From an uncultured archaeon (GTDB lineage Archaea > Asgardarchaeota > Lokiarchaeia > Sigyniarchaeales > SOKP01), in contig CAZBPC010000003.1 in NCBI GenBank assembly GCA_964493715.1, positions 1-64,000 on the forward strand: a stretch of DNA of 64,000 bases. Reading direction: 5' to 3'. Below the pieces are notes generated by a model that searched no databases, had not been told where the DNA came from, and saw nothing but the letters and a program-made list of their open reading frames with translations. The translations under genes and the position numbers were made by a program. Below are positions 6,214-50,018 of this stretch, piece after piece. The stretch's first letter is position 1. Each line of letters opens with the position of its first letter.

Positions 6214-6852
6214 TTATTTTTTTGTAATTCGATATATTTTAACCTTGATGTCCTTCTTTTTTTGACTGTGAAAGGGAAACGTTTTTTCTAATCTCATTTT
6301 AAACGGATACGTGTAATTAATTTTCCAACCATTTTTAGCTATGAATTTTGAGAGAAAATCGTGCACTTTTTCATTATGCAGATGAATTGTGTAAATGATA
6401 TCTGAAAAATTAAAAGCTTTTAAAAGGAATGCCCTATCTGCAGTTCTCTTTTGCACACCAAATGGAGGATTCATGATCGTAGTGATTTTTAGAGAATCCG
6501 GTAGATTAATCTTACTAAATTCAAAATTGGATACATTCGTACAGATCGGATTAATGAGCTGATTCAAACCAAGATTATTTATATTTTGTTTAAAAATCTT
6601 GATTGCAGACCAATCAAAATCAATACCAATTACTTGATTTGCACGGAGATATACGCTTGCAATTGATAATCTTCCCGTGCCTGAACCTAAATCAATAATT
6701 AAATTATTACAAATGTCGTTAAATTCTAATCCCGCAAAATAGATAATATCAGCAGCACTTATCGCATCGATCGTATATTGCTCATATTCAACTTTTGGGT
6801 TTGAAAATGGTGCCGTCGATTGAATTATCGAAATTAATTCTTTTTTATTAAT
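6214..6852 (-). CDS. METTL5-family RNA adenine N6-methyltransferase; probable ATT start
   Basis: The frame stays open about 95 codons upstream of the track ORF: FSNPKVEYEQY, IDLGSGTGRL (SAM motif), then NPPFG. Confidence 0.85.
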   Translation of the reverse strand: MNKKELISIIQSTAPFSNPKVEYEQYTIDAISAADIIYFAGLEFNDICNNLIIDLGSGTGRLSIASVYLRANQVIGIDFDWSAIKIFKQNINNLGLNQLINPICTNVSNFEFSKINLPDSLKITTIMNPPFGVQKRTADRAFLLKAFNFSDIIYTIHLHNEKVHDFLSKFIAKNGWKINYTYPFKMRLEKTFPFHSQKKKDIKVKIYRITKK

Positions 6853-6966
6853 ACCAATCTCCTAAAAAACTCGCTCTGGTTTAATCTCATGAAACATAAT
6901 GAATAAATTTATTTGTTTTATAACCATAATTATAATGAGATAAATAGAAAAAAATTGCTTTTTATC

Positions 6967-11248: not shown

Positions 11249-11686
11249 TTAAAGCAGATCTTCAAGGAGTTCATCGTAATTTTCGTTGAATAATGAGAAA
11301 ATTTCATCTATTTCTTTCATGAAATTAATGCATTCTCCCTTTTCATCAATAATTTCTGAAGGTACTTTTTTCTTTAGAAAGTTTGCAAATATGATATCAA
11401 AATCCCGTACACTTAATCGTGTTTCTTTTAAAAAATCTAAGAGATGATGAATGTAAAAAGCCTTCACGTACATTTTCTCATTGCTATATTGTTTATCGAG
11501 ATCTTTTTGGTAGAAAAACTTTAACTGGCGTGAAGTGTTGGTCTCTTCTTCATCAATGCTGTTTCGGGATTCTTCAGAAAATGCCCATTCTGTTCCATAA
11601 TCAATATTTTGATTGACATAATTTGCGATCAAGCGATCAATGTTTGCTTTATCTGTCCATTTGCTATGTATGACCCAATTTGGCAT
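11249..11686 (-). CDS. Hypothetical protein, possible metal-binding helical hydrolase
   Basis: MPNWVIH at the N-terminus and a later HHLLD motif. Confidence 0.55.
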   Translation of the reverse strand: MPNWVIHSKWTDKANIDRLIANYVNQNIDYGTEWAFSEESRNSIDEEETNTSRQLKFFYQKDLDKQYSNEKMYVKAFYIHHLLDFLKETRLSVRDFDIIFANFLKKKVPSEIIDEKGECINFMKEIDEIFSLFNENYDELLEDLL

Positions 11687-11851
11687 TTTTATCCATAATT
11701 ATTTTAAAGCGTTATGTGATGAAAAATAGATATAAAATAATAAATTTTAAGGCATTGAAAGCTAAAAATAAAAAACGATAGATGCTTACAAATATTAAAT
11801 TGCATGATTTGCAATATTAAAATAATATACTTAAACTATTGTTGATCCCCC

Positions 11852-13600: not shown

Positions 13601-14878
13601 CTAAATAATTTTTGCTACTCCCTTACATAATAAGAATACGGCTACATGATGAGGAACTTCAATTTTTTCGCCCCATTCATAATCTCCATACGTTATTCCT
13701 TTAATTTTTGTGGCAGGAACTTTAAGATCAGTTATTTCCAATTTTTGAGTAATTTGTTTCTTACTTTCAAATACAATTGGGTCAATTAGTTCATTGCTTT
13801 CGTTTAGTGGGTTGAATTCATCAAGTTGATCATAATCAAGTTCTTGAACCTTAAACCCTGTCTTTCCATGCAATGTTCCAGGGTATCTAATAAGTCTATG
13901 GATATCAATTGAGACGGGTTCATCGATCTCTGCCCCAACTTTCTTTACAACAGCTCTAAGTAATTTTTTCCACGTAGTTAAGCCAAATCCTTCAATTGAC
14001 CAAATATTTTGTTGTTTGCTATTAATAACCTCTAAAAATTCTTCTCGATATTTTAGCAAACTACTTATTCGGGCGGAATTTAGATCACCCCAATTTGGAT
14101 CGCGTAAGAAATGTTCAATCTCAAGGGGTTCCATTCGCAAAATCTCCTCAAGTTTAGTCATAATTTTGTTTGACCATCCTTGGTTATCTTTTATGAGTCC
14201 AAAAATACTTGCCTTTTCATGTAAACCCAAAATTTCAAATGAAATATTATGCCCCGTTAGATAATCGACTATTTCTCTTCGTTGATCACTGGTTAAGGTT
14301 CTAATTCTTGGATCCTCTATTTTTAAATGATATCCACGATGTCCCGAGAAAGCTATATTAATTTGGTCAAGATTTACTGCAAAATCAGGAATTAAAAAAT
14401 TATCTATTAACTTTATAATTTCTTTTTTCGCAATGTTTAAACAGTTCTCACATATCCACGCAACCCGGGTTATTTTTAACTTTTCACAATTAGGGCATTT
14501 TTCAATCATGCCTCTACCATTCGTTCCACACTCCTTACAGTACCAGAGATCGTGATCATTCTTGCATCCAGTGTAAAAATGATCAACATCAATATCTATT
14601 ACAAAATCACAACCTTGATAACCTTTATTTTCCATATCATCATTATCGGGTTGCCTATAAAGAGAACCACTTGAATAAGCATGCATTGGACTTTTTTGAA
14701 TAAGGAATTGTCTTAAATCTTCAATTTCGGCAAAACCTAAATGTCTTTGCATAAATTTGTTATCCCATAGAAGAAAGCCAAATTCTCTTCGATCTAGCAT
14801 ACTTACAGCTGGAATATCCTTCTGGGATTCTTGATAGAATGCTTGGAACAAATTCCTAAGAAAAATCTCATTTTTCAT
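13601..14878 (-). CDS. priS: DNA primase catalytic subunit PriS
   Basis: REFGF, DFVIDID, FSGHRGYH, IDEPVSIDIHRLIRYPGTLHGKTG. Confidence 0.96.
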   Translation of the reverse strand: MKNEIFLRNLFQAFYQESQKDIPAVSMLDRREFGFLLWDNKFMQRHLGFAEIEDLRQFLIQKSPMHAYSSGSLYRQPDNDDMENKGYQGCDFVIDIDVDHFYTGCKNDHDLWYCKECGTNGRGMIEKCPNCEKLKITRVAWICENCLNIAKKEIIKLIDNFLIPDFAVNLDQINIAFSGHRGYHLKIEDPRIRTLTSDQRREIVDYLTGHNISFEILGLHEKASIFGLIKDNQGWSNKIMTKLEEILRMEPLEIEHFLRDPNWGDLNSARISSLLKYREEFLEVINSKQQNIWSIEGFGLTTWKKLLRAVVKKVGAEIDEPVSIDIHRLIRYPGTLHGKTGFKVQELDYDQLDEFNPLNESNELIDPIVFESKKQITQKLEITDLKVPATKIKGITYGDYEWGEKIEVPHHVAVFLLCKGVAKII

Positions 14879-16058
14879 TTTTATTTTTCGTTTGAACCTC
14901 CTCTTTAGGTCTATATTTACGATATTGCATTATTCGGACATAGTGTAATGGGTGCTGTATCTTTTTCTGAGATTCCAATTTTTTAGAATAATAACCTTCT
15001 AAACATAATTCATCTTTATACTGATCTGCCCTGCAGAGACTATAAGATTTTAACGTAGAACAAGAATGGGGTAAATATCCCTTTTTTTTCGCAAATTCCA
15101 CTTGATATTCTGTCTTCTTCCGATCAAAATCAGGTAATTTCGCAAAAAAGTTAACAATTTCATCAATTGGAATTTCTAAAGCATGTAAAAAGAAAACAAG
15201 AAATAATCTTTCAATGTGAGTAAGGTTTTGACCTTCATCAACTTTTTTAAGAATATCTACAATACAAGGTGGGAAACTCTCTTCTACATTTTCACCTTTT
15301 GAATATTTAAATACATACGGTTCTCCAAATTCATCTTTTTTCAATTCCCATACGTCAAGAATCCTTTCATTAAGCTCTCTGATTTCTTTAATTTCAAGCA
15401 ATTTATTCTTAAAATCATCTAAACTCGATATATCCTTCGCTTCTTGAATTAAAAGTTTTTTTCTTACAATTTCCTGCAAAAGACGAGTTAACTCTTTTTT
15501 ATCAATTAAAACAAACCCGTGATTTAAAACATTATGAACCAGTTTTCGATGATCATCTCTTAAATTAGAAGCAAGTTTGAGATAATCAATATAGTGAATG
15601 CTGAATTGTGTTTGAAGAACTTGTTTTCGGTCTTTCTCAATAATTAATCCAAAAGGAACTGCTTTATCATAATATTGGATATTTAATTTCAAATCTTTAC
15701 AAATAGAATATAAATTATAATCATTATCTTCTCTAATCATTTTATTATAAGTGTGTTTTGCATATAAGTTAGCAACTCTATTGGCAATTGGTACACTGTT
15801 ATTTATATAGAGTAGAATTTTCAAAATGGTATAAAGATAAACGTTTAACTCATCAGCTTTATAGGTTTTTATTTCTTCGACATTTTCAAAAGCTGTTTTG
15901 AATATACTAAAAATACGATCTACTAATTCCCCATCTGGATATTCTGCTATTTTTTCCTTAATAAACTCTACTGGATCTTTTGCTGCTATTTCAGAATAAT
16001 AAATTTTCTTTGAAGGTAACCAAGGATAATGCTTAACTAACTCATATGAAATGCTCAA
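14868..16058 (-). CDS. priL: DNA primase large subunit PriL
   Basis: FPPCI, LTHIER, PDFD, SCSTLKSYSLC, HPLHY (Fe-S domain). Confidence 0.93.
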   Translation of the reverse strand: MSISYELVKHYPWLPSKKIYYSEIAAKDPVEFIKEKIAEYPDGELVDRIFSIFKTAFENVEEIKTYKADELNVYLYTILKILLYINNSVPIANRVANLYAKHTYNKMIREDNDYNLYSICKDLKLNIQYYDKAVPFGLIIEKDRKQVLQTQFSIHYIDYLKLASNLRDDHRKLVHNVLNHGFVLIDKKELTRLLQEIVRKKLLIQEAKDISSLDDFKNKLLEIKEIRELNERILDVWELKKDEFGEPYVFKYSKGENVEESFPPCIVDILKKVDEGQNLTHIERLFLVFFLHALEIPIDEIVNFFAKLPDFDRKKTEYQVEFAKKKGYLPHSCSTLKSYSLCRADQYKDELCLEGYYSKKLESQKKIQHPLHYVRIMQYRKYRPKEEVQTKNKNEK

Positions 16059-18384: not shown

Positions 18385-18408
18385 TTCGTGAAAGGATTCT
18401 TTCACGAA
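18385..18408. terminator. Perfect 10-bp stem-loop between the convergent tfs and rps27e genes
   Basis: TTCGTGAAAG-GATT-CTTTCACGAA; the terminator role is inferred only from position. Confidence 0.4.
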
Positions 18409-18499
18409 CTATTGGTATAATTATTGATTTAATCGAAATTGAATCAAATTAAAAATTAGTTTATAGCAAGATATATCTTATTAATTTAGATGAAAAAGG

Positions 18500-18706
18500 T
18501 TAAGAAAGAACTTCTAAAATTTTAGTTAAGATTCGTGCTTTCCCTCCAGTGGATTGTAAAAGTGTTTTCCCACATACGAGGCATTCAACATCAGTAGCAG
18601 AGCATCCAAAAATAATCTGTTGATTTCCACAGTTCAAGCATTTAACCCTTAAAAATCTGCTATTTGGTTGAGGGATTAAATCTAATTCTTTTTTCTTCTT
18701 GGGCAT
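18500..18706 (-). CDS. rps27e: 30S ribosomal protein S27e
   Basis: [13 protein letters not shown]...CLVCG...TGGKA. Confidence 0.96.
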
Positions 18707-18721
18707 GATTAAATAACAACT

Positions 18722-19003
18722 CTAAACTTCTTGTAATTCAAATTTCTTTACTCGATAAGATTTAGCATATTGTTTCTTACCACAGTCGCCGCATTCTAAT
18801 ATTGGTAAGGATCTTTTATTTAACTTGGCATTTTTATGGAAGATTTCTTTTGGGAATGAACCATATCCTCTCTTTTTTCTTTCAACTCTCCTTCTTCCCT
18901 GATTTAACATGCGTTCTTTTCCTTTCTTATATAGCGATACATTATGCTGCGTATGTGCTCTGCATTTAGGACAATAATGGTTTACTGTTCTTGGATAGCG
19001 AAT
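18722..19003 (-). CDS. rpl44e: 50S ribosomal protein L44e; probable ATT start
   Basis: The frame extends upstream of the track ORF: IRYPRTVNHYCPKCRAHTQHNVSLYKKGKER...GYG...LECGDC, 93 aa. Confidence 0.93.
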   Translation of the reverse strand: MRYPRTVNHYCPKCRAHTQHNVSLYKKGKERMLNQGRRRVERKKRGYGSFPKEIFHKNAKLNKRSLPILECGDCGKKQYAKSYRVKKFELQEV

Positions 19004-19191
19004 ATGAATCCTCTCGAGTTTTTGATAACAATCGATAAAAAATATATATTGGAATCTAATTAAGCAATAATTATAAATTTTATTATTTCCTTAGCCTAAG
19101 CTCTTAAATTATGAATTATTAATTAGAGTTAATAGATAAGATTTAAAATTATAGATTCATAATTAAAATAAATTTTTTTATTAGGATTACG

Positions 19192-20112
19192 ATGTTTAAA
19201 GAAAAATTTAAAGAGGGAATTATAACAGCTAAAGATTTCACTCGGGATGATATTGATTATATCCTAAAGAAAGCAAGAGGAATGATTAGCAATGATAAGA
19301 ATTCACAACTTTTAAGCAATAAAATCTTAGCTACGTTATTTTTTGAACCTTCTACAAGAACTAGGCTTAGTTTTGAGTCAGCAATGCATAGATTAGGTGG
19401 AAGTGTAATCGGTTTTCATAAGGGAGATGTTTCTTCTGTCACAAAAGGAGAAACTCTCGCAGATACGATTAGAACAGTAGAAAATTATAGTGATTGCATT
19501 GTGATTCGCCATAATATGGAGGGAGCTGCAAAATTAGCCGCGAAGTTTTCTAGGATTCCTATCATCAATGCAGGGTCTGGTAGTGGTGAACATCCTACTC
19601 AAGCTTTATTAGATTTATTAACAATAACTGAAGAAGGGCAAAAGTTGGACGGCATAAATATCGGAATTATGGGTGATCTCAAGTATGGAAGAACTGTTCA
19701 TTCTTTAACAATCCTATTGTCAAATTATGATGCAAATATATATTTAATAAGTCCAAATGAACTAATGCTACGAAATCGAGACAAGGACTTCTTGCAAAGA
19801 AGACAAGTAAAATATAAAGAAATCACTCAATATCGTAAGATTTTAGATGTGCTAGATGTTTTATACATGACTCGTATTCAAAAAGAAAGGTTTCCAGATG
19901 TTGAGGAATATGATCGAGTGAAGAATTTTTATGTATTTAGAAGCGATGATCTTGAGGAGACAAAAGACAATTTCAAACTCATGCATCCCTTACCAAGGAT
20001 TACAGAGATTTCTCCTGAAGTGGATAGTTCCCCTAAAGCTATTTACTTCAAGCAGACTCACTATGGGGTTCCAATGAGAAAAGCAATATTAGCAGAATTA
20101 TTATCTGATTAA
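19192..20112 (+). CDS. pyrB: Aspartate carbamoyltransferase catalytic subunit
   Basis: FFEPSTRTRLSF, HPTQ, GDLKYGRTVHS, HPLPR. Confidence 0.97.
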   Translation: MFKEKFKEGIITAKDFTRDDIDYILKKARGMISNDKNSQLLSNKILATLFFEPSTRTRLSFESAMHRLGGSVIGFHKGDVSSVTKGETLADTIRTVENYSDCIVIRHNMEGAAKLAAKFSRIPIINAGSGSGEHPTQALLDLLTITEEGQKLDGINIGIMGDLKYGRTVHSLTILLSNYDANIYLISPNELMLRNRDKDFLQRRQVKYKEITQYRKILDVLDVLYMTRIQKERFPDVEEYDRVKNFYVFRSDDLEETKDNFKLMHPLPRITEISPEVDSSPKAIYFKQTHYGVPMRKAILAELLSD

Positions 20113-36493: not shown

Positions 36494-37603
36494 CTAATTC
36501 TTAAATGATACTTTCTTTCTCATTTTATTTCCAGATAAATAAAGAATACAACACCCAGGACATATTGACATAAACTGTTTACGTGAAATATAATCTCTAA
36601 ACTTTTGATATTTCGATCCAAACCATATTTCTTCAAAAGTATTATCGTATAGATTACCCATAACGAGATCGTAAAAAATATGACATGGTGCTATATCTCC
36701 ATTGGCAACAATATCCGTTGAAACCCATGGAATAATGCAACTTTTATAATGATCGCTCATCTTACACCAATCAGCTTTTAGATAAGCCTCAAGATTCTCT
36801 GGTGTAAAAGAAGGGGGTAGAAGTAACAAATATTTATTCTTTTCTTTTAGTGCTTTCTTCACTCGAAAAACTTGACGTGATAACTCTGAACAATCTATAT
36901 TTAAAAACTCTTGAGGTTCTCTTACTAAACCTTTCCAATATTTAGCGTTTTCTATATTAAATTCTGTCTTTAAAAATCTGGCATAGGTTTCCCCCATTTG
37001 TTGAGTAATAAAATTTTGCATTTGTATGGTAATCCAATTAAAATGTTCAAGATTTAAATCTTTAAGAAAAAGTTCCTCAATTGAATCACAATTTTCAGGT
37101 GTGACTGTATAAATGATACTTAAATCTGGCTTTTTTGCATGTTGTTTCTTCTTCTCTTCAACAAGTGCTTCTATTCCAGCAATCGCTTTCTCATAACTAC
37201 CATTCCCTCTTTGAATATTATTTTGTTTACGGGGTCCATCAAGAGACACTCGAATGGAGTCGAATTTTGTCTTTACTAACATCATTGCGTTTTCCTCAAG
37301 CAATGTGCCATTGGTAGGAGTATCGACGAAACATTTAGTTTTTTTAATTTCTAGAATTAATTCTTCAAGACATGGATAAATTAAAGGTTCCCCTCCAAAT
37401 AGAGAATACATCGGATTTGCTGGAGCTAAATATTCAATTACCCGTTTTAATTTGTCAAAATCTAAAGAACTTGGTTTCATGTTTAATTTATTCTTAGAAT
37501 AAACCCCAGTTTCTCCAAAGTAATAACACATTTTACATCTTAAATTGCAATTCTCAGTAAGGTGTAAAGTAATATTTCGAGGCAGATTTAATTGTTTAGT
37601 AAT
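36494..37603 (-). CDS. Radical SAM/SPASM-domain protein; probable ATT start
   Basis: The frame extends upstream to complete LTENCNLRCKMC (CxxxCxxC); also GGEP, TNGTLL, VSLDG and a C-terminal C...GDIAPC...CPGC. Confidence 0.88.
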   Translation of the reverse strand: MTKQLNLPRNITLHLTENCNLRCKMCYYFGETGVYSKNKLNMKPSSLDFDKLKRVIEYLAPANPMYSLFGGEPLIYPCLEELILEIKKTKCFVDTPTNGTLLEENAMMLVKTKFDSIRVSLDGPRKQNNIQRGNGSYEKAIAGIEALVEEKKKQHAKKPDLSIIYTVTPENCDSIEELFLKDLNLEHFNWITIQMQNFITQQMGETYARFLKTEFNIENAKYWKGLVREPQEFLNIDCSELSRQVFRVKKALKEKNKYLLLLPPSFTPENLEAYLKADWCKMSDHYKSCIIPWVSTDIVANGDIAPCHIFYDLVMGNLYDNTFEEIWFGSKYQKFRDYISRKQFMSICPGCCILYLSGNKMRKKVSFKN

Positions 37604-37701
37604 TCATATCCCCTTATTTTCAATACTCTTCTTCCTAATTACTAGTAATTAATTCAAATTTCTTAAAATAGATTTACTTGTTAACTAAAATTAAAAGGAT
37701 T

Positions 37702-49298: not shown

Positions 49299-50018
49299 TC
49301 ATTTCAAAAAATTTATCAATGTCATTTGAGTAGAAGGAGGTTTTTCTATCTTTTTGAAGGAATATCCTGTTAATTGAGAAATCAATTCTTCGATTTTTTT
49401 TATAACTTCTGCTAATAACAAGTGTTCCGTATTGATCATTAAGATTTTTGTTTTATCTGTTTTTGATATCAAAAAATCATCATAATACGAAAGAATTTTG
49501 AGTAAATAATTTCTTTTATGTTCATTCCACTCCTTTCTTATTTCTTCTAAGGACCCTCGCTGGTAAATACGCTTTAAAATAGTATCTGGTTCAGCTGTAA
49601 GGTAAATTACGTAATCTTCTCTCCAATCTACTGAATTATACATGCTTAAAATGAGATCATAATCTTTACTCTTGAGATTTAGCGCTTTTGAGTATATCAA
49701 GACACAAATTGGAGTTCTATCAAGTATTATGATCCTTCCATTATATGATTTATCAAAATTAACAATATTCGTATTCCTACGAGTTAATTGCTGAAGGAAA
49801 TGAAATTCACTCCTAAATCCAATATTTTTATCACTAGATCCAAACGGAAAAGGCGGTTTTTTAATATAACGTTCTGGAAAGAATTTAAATTTATTATTAT
49901 CATTATATTTTTTTTTTAACATGTTAAACACAGTAGTTTTACCGACACCATGAGCTCCCGCTATCGAAATAACGATATTTGCTTTTTTTCCTTTATTTCG
50001 ATAGGTTCTTTTACCCAA
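49299..50018 (-). CDS. Deoxynucleoside/thymidylate kinase family protein
   Basis: GAHGVGKTT, ILDRT, VIYL...RIYQRG. Confidence 0.8.
   Translation of the reverse strand: MGKRTYRNKGKKANIVISIAGAHGVGKTTVFNMLKKKYNDNNKFKFFPERYIKKPPFPFGSSDKNIGFRSEFHFLQQLTRRNTNIVNFDKSYNGRIIILDRTPICVLIYSKALNLKSKDYDLILSMYNSVDWREDYVIYLTAEPDTILKRIYQRGSLEEIRKEWNEHKRNYLLKILSYYDDFLISKTDKTKILMINTEHLLLAEVIKKIEELISQLTGYSFKKIEKPPSTQMTLINFLK

Follow-up and report, generated by a model that had tools for sequence, protein, structure and literature searches.

Probable initiation at AUU, AUA and AUC codons in an Asgard archaeal genome, including the genes for ribosomal protein L44e and the fidelity factor aIF1

Introduction

Where does translation of a gene begin when the part of its frame that encodes a zinc-binding motif lies upstream of every ATG, GTG and TTG? 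This question is raised by the gene for ribosomal protein L44e in the 64,000-nucleotide stretch of DNA that was analysed here and is called the window (positions 1-64000 of contig C3). The window belongs to an Asgard genome, G000, a 3.68-Mb draft with a G+C content of about 31%, which encodes many Ras/Arf-type GTPases together with archaeal information-processing genes. An earlier note, made from the letters of the window, had proposed that L44e, a METTL5-like methyltransferase and a radical SAM gene share a layout of a Shine-Dalgarno (SD) motif, a 6-nt spacer and an ATT start codon, and that this lineage initiates routinely at AUU. Here, we compared genes of the window and of the remainder of the genome with 30 relatives, of which 18 belong to the same genus and 12 come from three other families of the order. 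In the following, ATT, ATA and ATC are summarised as ATH (AUH in the mRNA), and ATG, GTG and TTG are referred to as canonical.

Results

The L44e gene and its start

The gene and the motif in front of it are located as follows.

18722..19003, minus strand: gene for ribosomal protein L44e (eL42), with ATT 19003-19001 as start, 93 codons and a stop
19010..19013, minus strand: GAGG, candidate site of ribosome binding, separated from the L44e ATT by 6 nt

The gene at 18722..19003 is that of L44e/eL42, as revealed by a full-length family match above the cut-off. Its product reached 91.4 bits with the NCBIfam equivalog NF004425 (cut-off 87) and an E-value of 1.5e-23 with Pfam PF00935. Since residues 2-92 lie on positions 2-92 of the 92 positions of NF004425, position 1 of the profile falls on the ATT. 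Members of the L44e/eL42 family have a zinc ribbon with two CxxC pairs, and both pairs were found in the 93 residues translated from the ATT, one as YCPKC near the N-terminus and one as CGDCG near the C-terminus. On the minus strand, the 5' region reads GAGAGG ATT CAT ATT CGC TAT CCA, and the spacer ATTCAT (19009-19004) opens with a second in-frame ATT; the choice between the two ATTs in ATT CAT ATT is putative and was made from alignment and spacing only. The frame extends from stop to stop over 18722-19090. None of the 29 in-frame codons from the upstream stop to the ATT is ATG, GTG or TTG; by the time the frame reaches its first canonical codon, ATG 18910, the first zinc-binding CPKC has been passed. 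The description of this gene in the earlier note, with a frame free of canonical codons back to the stop, a zinc motif ahead of the first ATG and a protein of normal length from ATT 19003, therefore holds.

Seventeen genomes of the genus have a match. Of these, 14 show ATG in the start column and one (G007) shows TTG; the remaining two, with ATT, are G000 and its closest relative G001. The latter has kept GAGAGG ATT NAT ATT, with the middle codon changed from CAT to AAT. The statement that even a core ribosomal protein uses ATT is thus supported for these two genomes. In the other families, seven of the 12 loci were readable, displaying ATG in six and ACG in one (G023). The ACG column of G023 (locus L018, contig C240) is situated 7 nt behind GGTGA and two codons past a TGA and is a possible ACG start.

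Public sequencing runs were consulted as well, 24 of which contain the stretch 18400-19400; the organism was traced to salt-marsh sediments. The earlier note had raised the possibility that reads might show ATG at these sites; for L44e, the contigs over 18709-19082 in run X3 and over 18705-19071 in run X15, the latter from another study, carry the same letters as the window, with no difference across the L44e start region. As these contigs are identical at the start, the ATT is not a sequencing error. No variant at 19001-19003 is among the differences listed for the contigs of the public runs, a comparison of contigs in which rare variants are invisible. The RNA-library run X21 contributed one contig, from a related strain, which spans 18702-19009 and indicates neither where a transcript starts nor whether it is translated. 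Since a DNA contig of this variant strain breaks off at 19008, the end of the RNA contig probably reflects sequence divergence and not the end of a transcript.

Further genes of the window

Three more genes of the window had been named as starting, or possibly starting, at ATT.

6214..6852, minus strand: class I SAM-dependent methyltransferase gene, starting at ATT 6852-6850
6859..6862, minus strand: GGAG, separated from the methyltransferase ATT by 6 nt, overlapping the in-frame TAG 6864-6862
36494..37603, minus strand: radical SAM/SPASM-type gene; its start, ATT 37603-37601, immediately follows an in-frame TGA
37610..37613, minus strand: GGGG, separated from the radical SAM ATT by the 6-nt spacer ATATGA
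49299..50018, minus strand: P-loop kinase-like gene, starting at TTG 50018-50016, with a weak dTMP-kinase-like match only

The 5' region of the methyltransferase gene reads TAG GAG ATT GGT ATT AAT AAA, with the spacer of 6 nt that the earlier note had described, and the first canonical codon comes only 98 codons into the frame. For this gene, 16 of the 19 loci of the genus were readable. The start column is ATT in eight of them (besides G000, in G001, G006 and five further congeners), ATA in six, ATG in one (G016) and ATC in one (G003, where an ATG also stands two codons upstream). The preceding codon varies (GGT, AGT, GTT, GAG, GCG, ACT, AAG, ACG), and a TAG is found three codons upstream of the start in most genomes of the genus. 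The METTL5 label was not confirmed: no METTL5 model is among the Pfam and NCBIfam profile matches of this gene. These matches are confined to generic models of class I methyltransferases (PrmA, MTS, HemK), none of them reaching an NCBIfam cut-off, so the gene is filed here as that of a class I SAM-dependent methyltransferase.

For the radical SAM gene, the proposed GGGG with 6 nt and ATT was seen as well. The cluster motif CxxxCxxC begins at residue 18, and the first Met lies inside it. G006 has retained the ATT behind GAGG and 6 nt (GAGG-ATACGA-ATT ACG AAA), and the aligned column is ATG in G011, G002, G004 and G016, while three loci were left unread by the anchor. The out-of-frame ATG within the spacer (37608-37606) is ACG in G006 and is hence regarded as incidental.

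Taken together, no canonical start precedes the zinc knuckle of L44e, the cluster motif of the radical SAM protein, or the N-terminus and SAM-binding motif of the methyltransferase. Homology-based start mapping and conservation in relatives, the two checks that the earlier note had put first, were both run, and all three firm examples hold. The tentative fourth example, an ATT just before the TTG of the kinase-like gene, was rejected. The site reads TGA ATT TTG GGT; TTG GGT AAA is conserved in G016, while the ATT is AGA there, and the start is accordingly the conserved TTG.

Of the 58 frames of the window with an orthologue on contig C82 of G016, three start at ATT. A reverse case was observed at 11249-11698 (minus strand), where G000 has ATG and G016 has ATA (AAA ATG CCA versus AAA ATA CCT); the first canonical codon of the G016 orthologue lies 33 codons into the frame. 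PriS (13601-14929), which had been flagged as start-less, is not counted. In the region 14868-14929, its 5' end overlaps the 3' end of PriL, and this overlap accounts for the conservation of the translation further upstream; the likely start of PriS is ATG 14878. A GGAGGT is located 17 nt before this ATG and at a better distance from ATA 14884. The flag on pyrB (19147-20112) was false, as were those on several AT-rich low-complexity frames or opposite-strand shadow frames.

Genome-wide tests of AUH starts

The SD signal of G000 is consistent with GGAGGTGA: G is enriched from -14 to -8, and GTGA lies mostly 6 nt before ATG. Behind GAGG or GGAG, a spacer of 6 nt is below the mode of the ATG genes and close to the lower limit of their spacing. 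As short 4-mers with short spacing, the motifs of the three window genes are singly only suggestive. When 4-mer SD motifs were considered, they preceded an in-frame ATT upstream of the first canonical start at a rate of 0.076, compared with 0.086 for other codons, without enrichment. The SD-6nt-ATT layout alone is therefore not above chance, and support has to come from homology, conservation and a stricter SD test.

This stricter test required a 5-mer of GGAGGTGA at an aligned spacing of 3-9 and was applied to in-frame codons at least five codons upstream of the first canonical start. In G000, 67 of 2296 ATH codons (2.92%) displayed such a motif, compared with 147 of 13070 other codons (1.12%), giving an odds ratio of 2.64 (p=1.4e-9). 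The enrichment was similar for ATT (35/1118), ATA (25/897) and ATC (7/281), and 55 distinct frames carry a site of this kind. Out-of-frame ATH revealed no excess (14/2044 in frame +1 and 8/1413 in frame +2), nor did ATH in the interior of genes (389/30023 versus 3473/252295 for other codons). By the same definition, a motif was found at 174 of 2136 first-canonical ATGs. In 396 kb of the congeners G016 and G017, 9 of 228 ATH codons were positive versus 20 of 1529 others (p=0.0085). For G026 and G024, which represent other families with 400 kb each, counts were few and the samples too small for this test.

Frames with a long start-free beginning were also more frequent than expected. In 3126 non-shadow frames of at least 100 codons, 76 had at least 40 codons lacking a canonical start, compared with 13.6 expected from a geometric fit to the short range. 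Seventy of these are free of N, and in 23 of them a Pfam stretch begins upstream of the first canonical start; the remainder include 28 frames without a family and two C-terminal fragments (c3 and c73). The 23 Pfam-supported frames include those for V-ATPase subunit D, SucC, RpoE'/Rpb7, PorA, a MoxR-like AAA protein, GDPD, L11, four Ras/Arf GTPases and aIF1. Read by eye, many of the 23 have a GGTG- or GAGG-type motif 6-8 nt before ATT, ATA or ATC, such as GAGGTGA-6-ATT in PorA and GGGTG-7-ATT in RpoE'. PAN shows GGTG-7-ATA; its first Pfam stretch starts at residue 70, beyond 68 start-free codons, which places it outside the 23.

Some minor features of these frames may be mentioned. The Ras/Arf GTPases that need an ATA or ATT start are L035, L068, L093 and L097 (frames c5, c40, c68 and c72). 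In 15 of the 70 long start-free frames, an ATT stands directly after the in-frame upstream stop, compared with about 8% where the start-free stretch is shorter. At their 5' ends, the 70 frames often have two Ile codons in a row (ATT ATA, ATT ATT). Where two ATH codons lie close together, in several cases as ATT ATA, the start given here is a candidate chosen from alignment and spacing only.

Orthologue mapping was based on 312 reciprocal-best pairs between G000 and the 396 kb of G016 and G017. In 26 pairs, homology begins at least 10 codons upstream of the first canonical start in G000. Hand reading of these 26 led to 10 accepted non-canonical starts and two 1-nt indels after ATG, the rest being shadows, fragments, overlaps or unclear. 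The two indel cases are frames of contig C2 of G000 (plus-strand index 30987 and minus-strand index 64140), in which the start codon is one base out of frame with respect to the ATG or TTG of G016; a 1-nt indel immediately behind the start is suggested by this, be it a real mutation or an assembly error. An automated count of conserved start-like columns did not separate ATH (13/59) from two decoy codon sets (10/59 and 8/59). As this count did not discriminate, the genome-wide fraction rests on extrapolation and on the hand reading of the 26 pairs.

In 111 pairs, the edge of homology coincides with a clean ATG in the relative, and the corresponding codon of G000 is ATG in 87, TTG in three, GTG in three, ATA in two and ATT in one. 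Extrapolating from the start-free frames, the SD test, the congeners and the orthologue mapping, we estimate that about 3-6% of the genes have AUH starts. The proposal that this lineage initiates routinely at AUU is thus supported as far as recurrence in the lineage is concerned; 'routinely' is too strong a word, such starts being a minority, with ATG in 87 of the 111 mapped columns, and AUA and AUC are used besides AUU. Frequent TTG starts, which had also been suspected, were not found, TTG accounting for only 3 of 111 and 7 of 127 mapped columns.

RpoE' and aIF1

Two genes outside the three examples of the window display non-canonical start columns throughout much of the genus. For RpoE', 17 loci were readable, with ATT in 11, ATC in three and ATG in three. 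A (G/T)GGTG is conserved 7 nt upstream of the start, while the codons of the spacer vary freely. The second gene is the following.

C23:30190-30528 of G000, minus strand, outside the window: sole aIF1/SUI1 gene of G000, compared over loci L100-L124

The first 57 codons of the aIF1 frame in G000 are free of canonical starts. The genus provides 13 complete loci (G000 and 12 congeners), which all show a TGA, three variable codons and an invariant ATT AAA GA(C/A), and two aIF1 paralogues have GAGGTGA, 8 nt and then ATT AAA GA. In the other genera of the order, the start column is ATA in two genomes, TTG in three and ATG in three. Position 1 of the NCBIfam models falls on the ATT for both L44e and RpoE', and within two residues of it for aIF1; each of the three has one match in G000. 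With 13 of 13 loci and the two paralogues, aIF1 is a fidelity-factor gene with a conserved weak start signal.

The initiator tRNA

Among the checks that the earlier note had suggested was an inspection of the initiator tRNA, which turned out to be of the ordinary type in G000, with the anticodon CAU and split by an intron. It is encoded at C23:5063-5172, outside the window, with A1, a GGG/CCC anticodon stem and the anticodon CAT. The intron, of some 26 nt, follows the anticodon loop, and the T arm probably contains a further insertion. The gene was located by BLAST with the tRNA of congeners, of which six of 18 contain GGGCTCATAACCC once each; in congeners, the intron lies elsewhere. The anticodon CAT is absent among the ARAGORN tRNAs of G000 (16 without and 27 with the intron option) and among the 26 Rfam tRNA matches listed, and two regex scans of the genome for the initiator tRNA gave no match. 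An ordinary initiator tRNA with CAU speaks for near-cognate initiation and not for a dedicated tRNA, as far as a gene read from DNA, in which base modifications of C34 are invisible, can indicate. ARAGORN also predicted a tRNA-SeC (anticodon TCA) and many tRNAs with long introns.

Discussion

Translation from near-cognate codons

With a probability of roughly 85%, we consider the L44e, methyltransferase and radical SAM genes to be translated from the near-cognate codon AUU, and other genes of G000 from AUA or AUC as well. Comparison shows that the predicted coding regions begin at or very near these ATH codons, and that the habit, as predicted from DNA, is genome-wide in G000 and present in the two congeners sampled (G016 and G017). 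By our estimate, the genes concerned would include those for L44e, RpoE', V-ATPase subunit D, PorA, several small GTPases and aIF1. Most likely, a G-rich motif of the Shine-Dalgarno type would position the small ribosomal subunit over the AUH codon, the initiator Met-tRNA (CAU) would pair with its first two bases, the mismatch at the third base being tolerated, and the protein would start with Met where relatives have AUG. We infer that the initiator tRNA decodes AUH as Met, that translation is less efficient there and that AUH codons may serve a regulatory use; the relaxed or regulated start-codon selection put forward in the earlier note may likewise apply. Switching of the start column between ATG, ATT, ATA, ATC and TTG fits near-neutral drift under AT pressure and tuning of output alike.

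One alternative would be that the true codons are ATG and were corrupted by sequencing or assembly. G000 was assembled from metagenomic data as a draft of 160 contigs, with N gaps, and two other genes have the apparent 1-nt indel right after ATG described above. We nevertheless regard this as extremely improbable, as ATT also occurs in separately assembled congeners (in L44e of G001, in seven methyltransferase genes, in the radical SAM gene of G006 and in 12 aIF1 genes), as the X3 and X15 contigs agree with the window at the L44e start, with no variant of its three bases listed, and as the SD enrichment is specific to in-frame ATH. Hardly better are the chances that translation starts at the first downstream ATG, GTG or TTG, or that the genes are pseudogenes, with a truncated product or none. 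A downstream start is the call expected from gene finders limited to these three codons, and real fragments do occur among the start-free frames (c3 and c73). Truncation, however, would delete the first CxxC of L44e, the cluster motif of the radical SAM protein, and the zinc knuckle and half of the SUI1 domain of aIF1; moreover, protein conservation across the genus extends into the upstream parts and gives way to freely varying codons in front of the ATH. L44e, RpoE' and aIF1 each have one match in G000, which also speaks against this reading.

Unlikely as well, though less so than these two, is that the N-terminus is made by another route, i.e., by leaderless initiation at or near AUU, by re-initiation after a tiny upstream frame (GTG TAA ATT or ATG-A-ATT), or by programmed frameshifting from an out-of-frame ATG. 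The elevated share of ATT right after an in-frame stop in long start-free frames would agree with such a route, and patterns such as ATGA-ATT and GTG TAA ATY do occur; the GTG of GAGGTG TAA, however, reads as part of the SD consensus. Against a role of the out-of-frame ATG before the radical SAM ATT speaks the ACG of G006. In favour of another route in L44e, an AT-rich, TATA-like stretch seen by eye about 30 nt upstream of the ATTs could be cited, as could the RNA contig of the related strain ending at 19009, but the DNA contig of that strain ends at 19008. Leaderless archaeal mRNAs strongly prefer AUG. The association of in-frame ATH with a strong SD motif at proper spacing fits SD-led initiation.

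Relation to known systems

NCBI translation tables 4, 2 and 5, which cover Mollicutes and mitochondria, list ATT, ATC and ATA as starts, and infC and pcnB of E. coli are bacterial examples of AUU-type starts. Mollicutes and mitochondria resemble the present case in having AT-rich genomes with common AUH starts, and differ in domain of life and in initiation factors; no sign of an altered codon meaning was encountered in G000. In the bacterial setting, several traits are alike: a third-base mismatch with CAU, SD-led initiation, restriction to a minority of genes, and an AUU at the gene of a fidelity factor. PMC4611024 describes AUU, AUC and AUA starts in bacteria, subject to discrimination by IF3. 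In contrast to bacteria, the Asgard machinery is archaeal and of the eukaryote type (aIF1, aIF1A, aIF2). Where two or three genes are concerned in the bacterial case, a few percent are estimated here, including ribosomal, RNA polymerase and ATPase subunits, as known from sequence.

For archaea, a systematic account of AUH initiation was not found in a full-text literature search. Individual observations exist: in PMC13394414, the tubulin gene AtubA from an Asgard MAG of the Kariarchaeaceae is proposed to have a 'rare ATT start codon', and in ribosome profiling of Haloferax, about 30% of the putative alternative initiation sites were near-cognate and were set aside by the authors, according to the relevant part of PMC7261190. 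The AtubA case is similar in that an Asgard gene was annotated too short and an upstream ATT lies at a plausible distance from a ribosome-binding site; unlike this single case, AUH starts were quantified here across a genome, in compared congeners and in core genes. AUH starts as such are known from bacteria, Mollicutes and organelles. What is new is their extent in an archaeal system of the eukaryote type and their occurrence in aIF1 itself.

A possible role of aIF1

The invariant ATT of aIF1 suggests that this gene may be subject to self-limiting feedback. Relevant passages of PMC6237735 describe autoregulation of eIF1 via an AUG in poor context and state that aIF1 of S. solfataricus favours the rejection of non-canonical starts. 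The two factors are homologues, and in both cases a weak initiation signal is found, which for aIF1 is conserved genus-wide here. In eIF1, the weakness lies in the flanking context, whereas the start codon of aIF1 is itself the weak element, being AUU here and AUA or TTG in sister genera; the feedback is hypothetical. As a tentative extension, to which we give clearly less than even odds, aIF1 might govern a tunable layer of weak starts, limiting itself via AUU while its level sets the output of about a hundred or more AUH genes. If so, the level of aIF1 would control AUH genes for ribosomal, RNA polymerase, ATPase and small-GTPase proteins. The weak start of aIF1 thus leads to the hypothesis that a feedback on start-codon stringency, known for IF3 and eIF1, may exist in archaea as well.

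For the initiation apparatus itself, these findings would mean that an archaeal machinery of the eukaryote type tolerates third-base mismatches at core genes. For annotation, if a few percent of genes start with AUH, gene finders restricted to ATG, GTG and TTG would systematically shorten or lose the proteins concerned. Such shortening matters for the comparison of eukaryote-like Asgard proteins, and AtubA, in the part of PMC13394414 that deals with its start, needed exactly such a correction.
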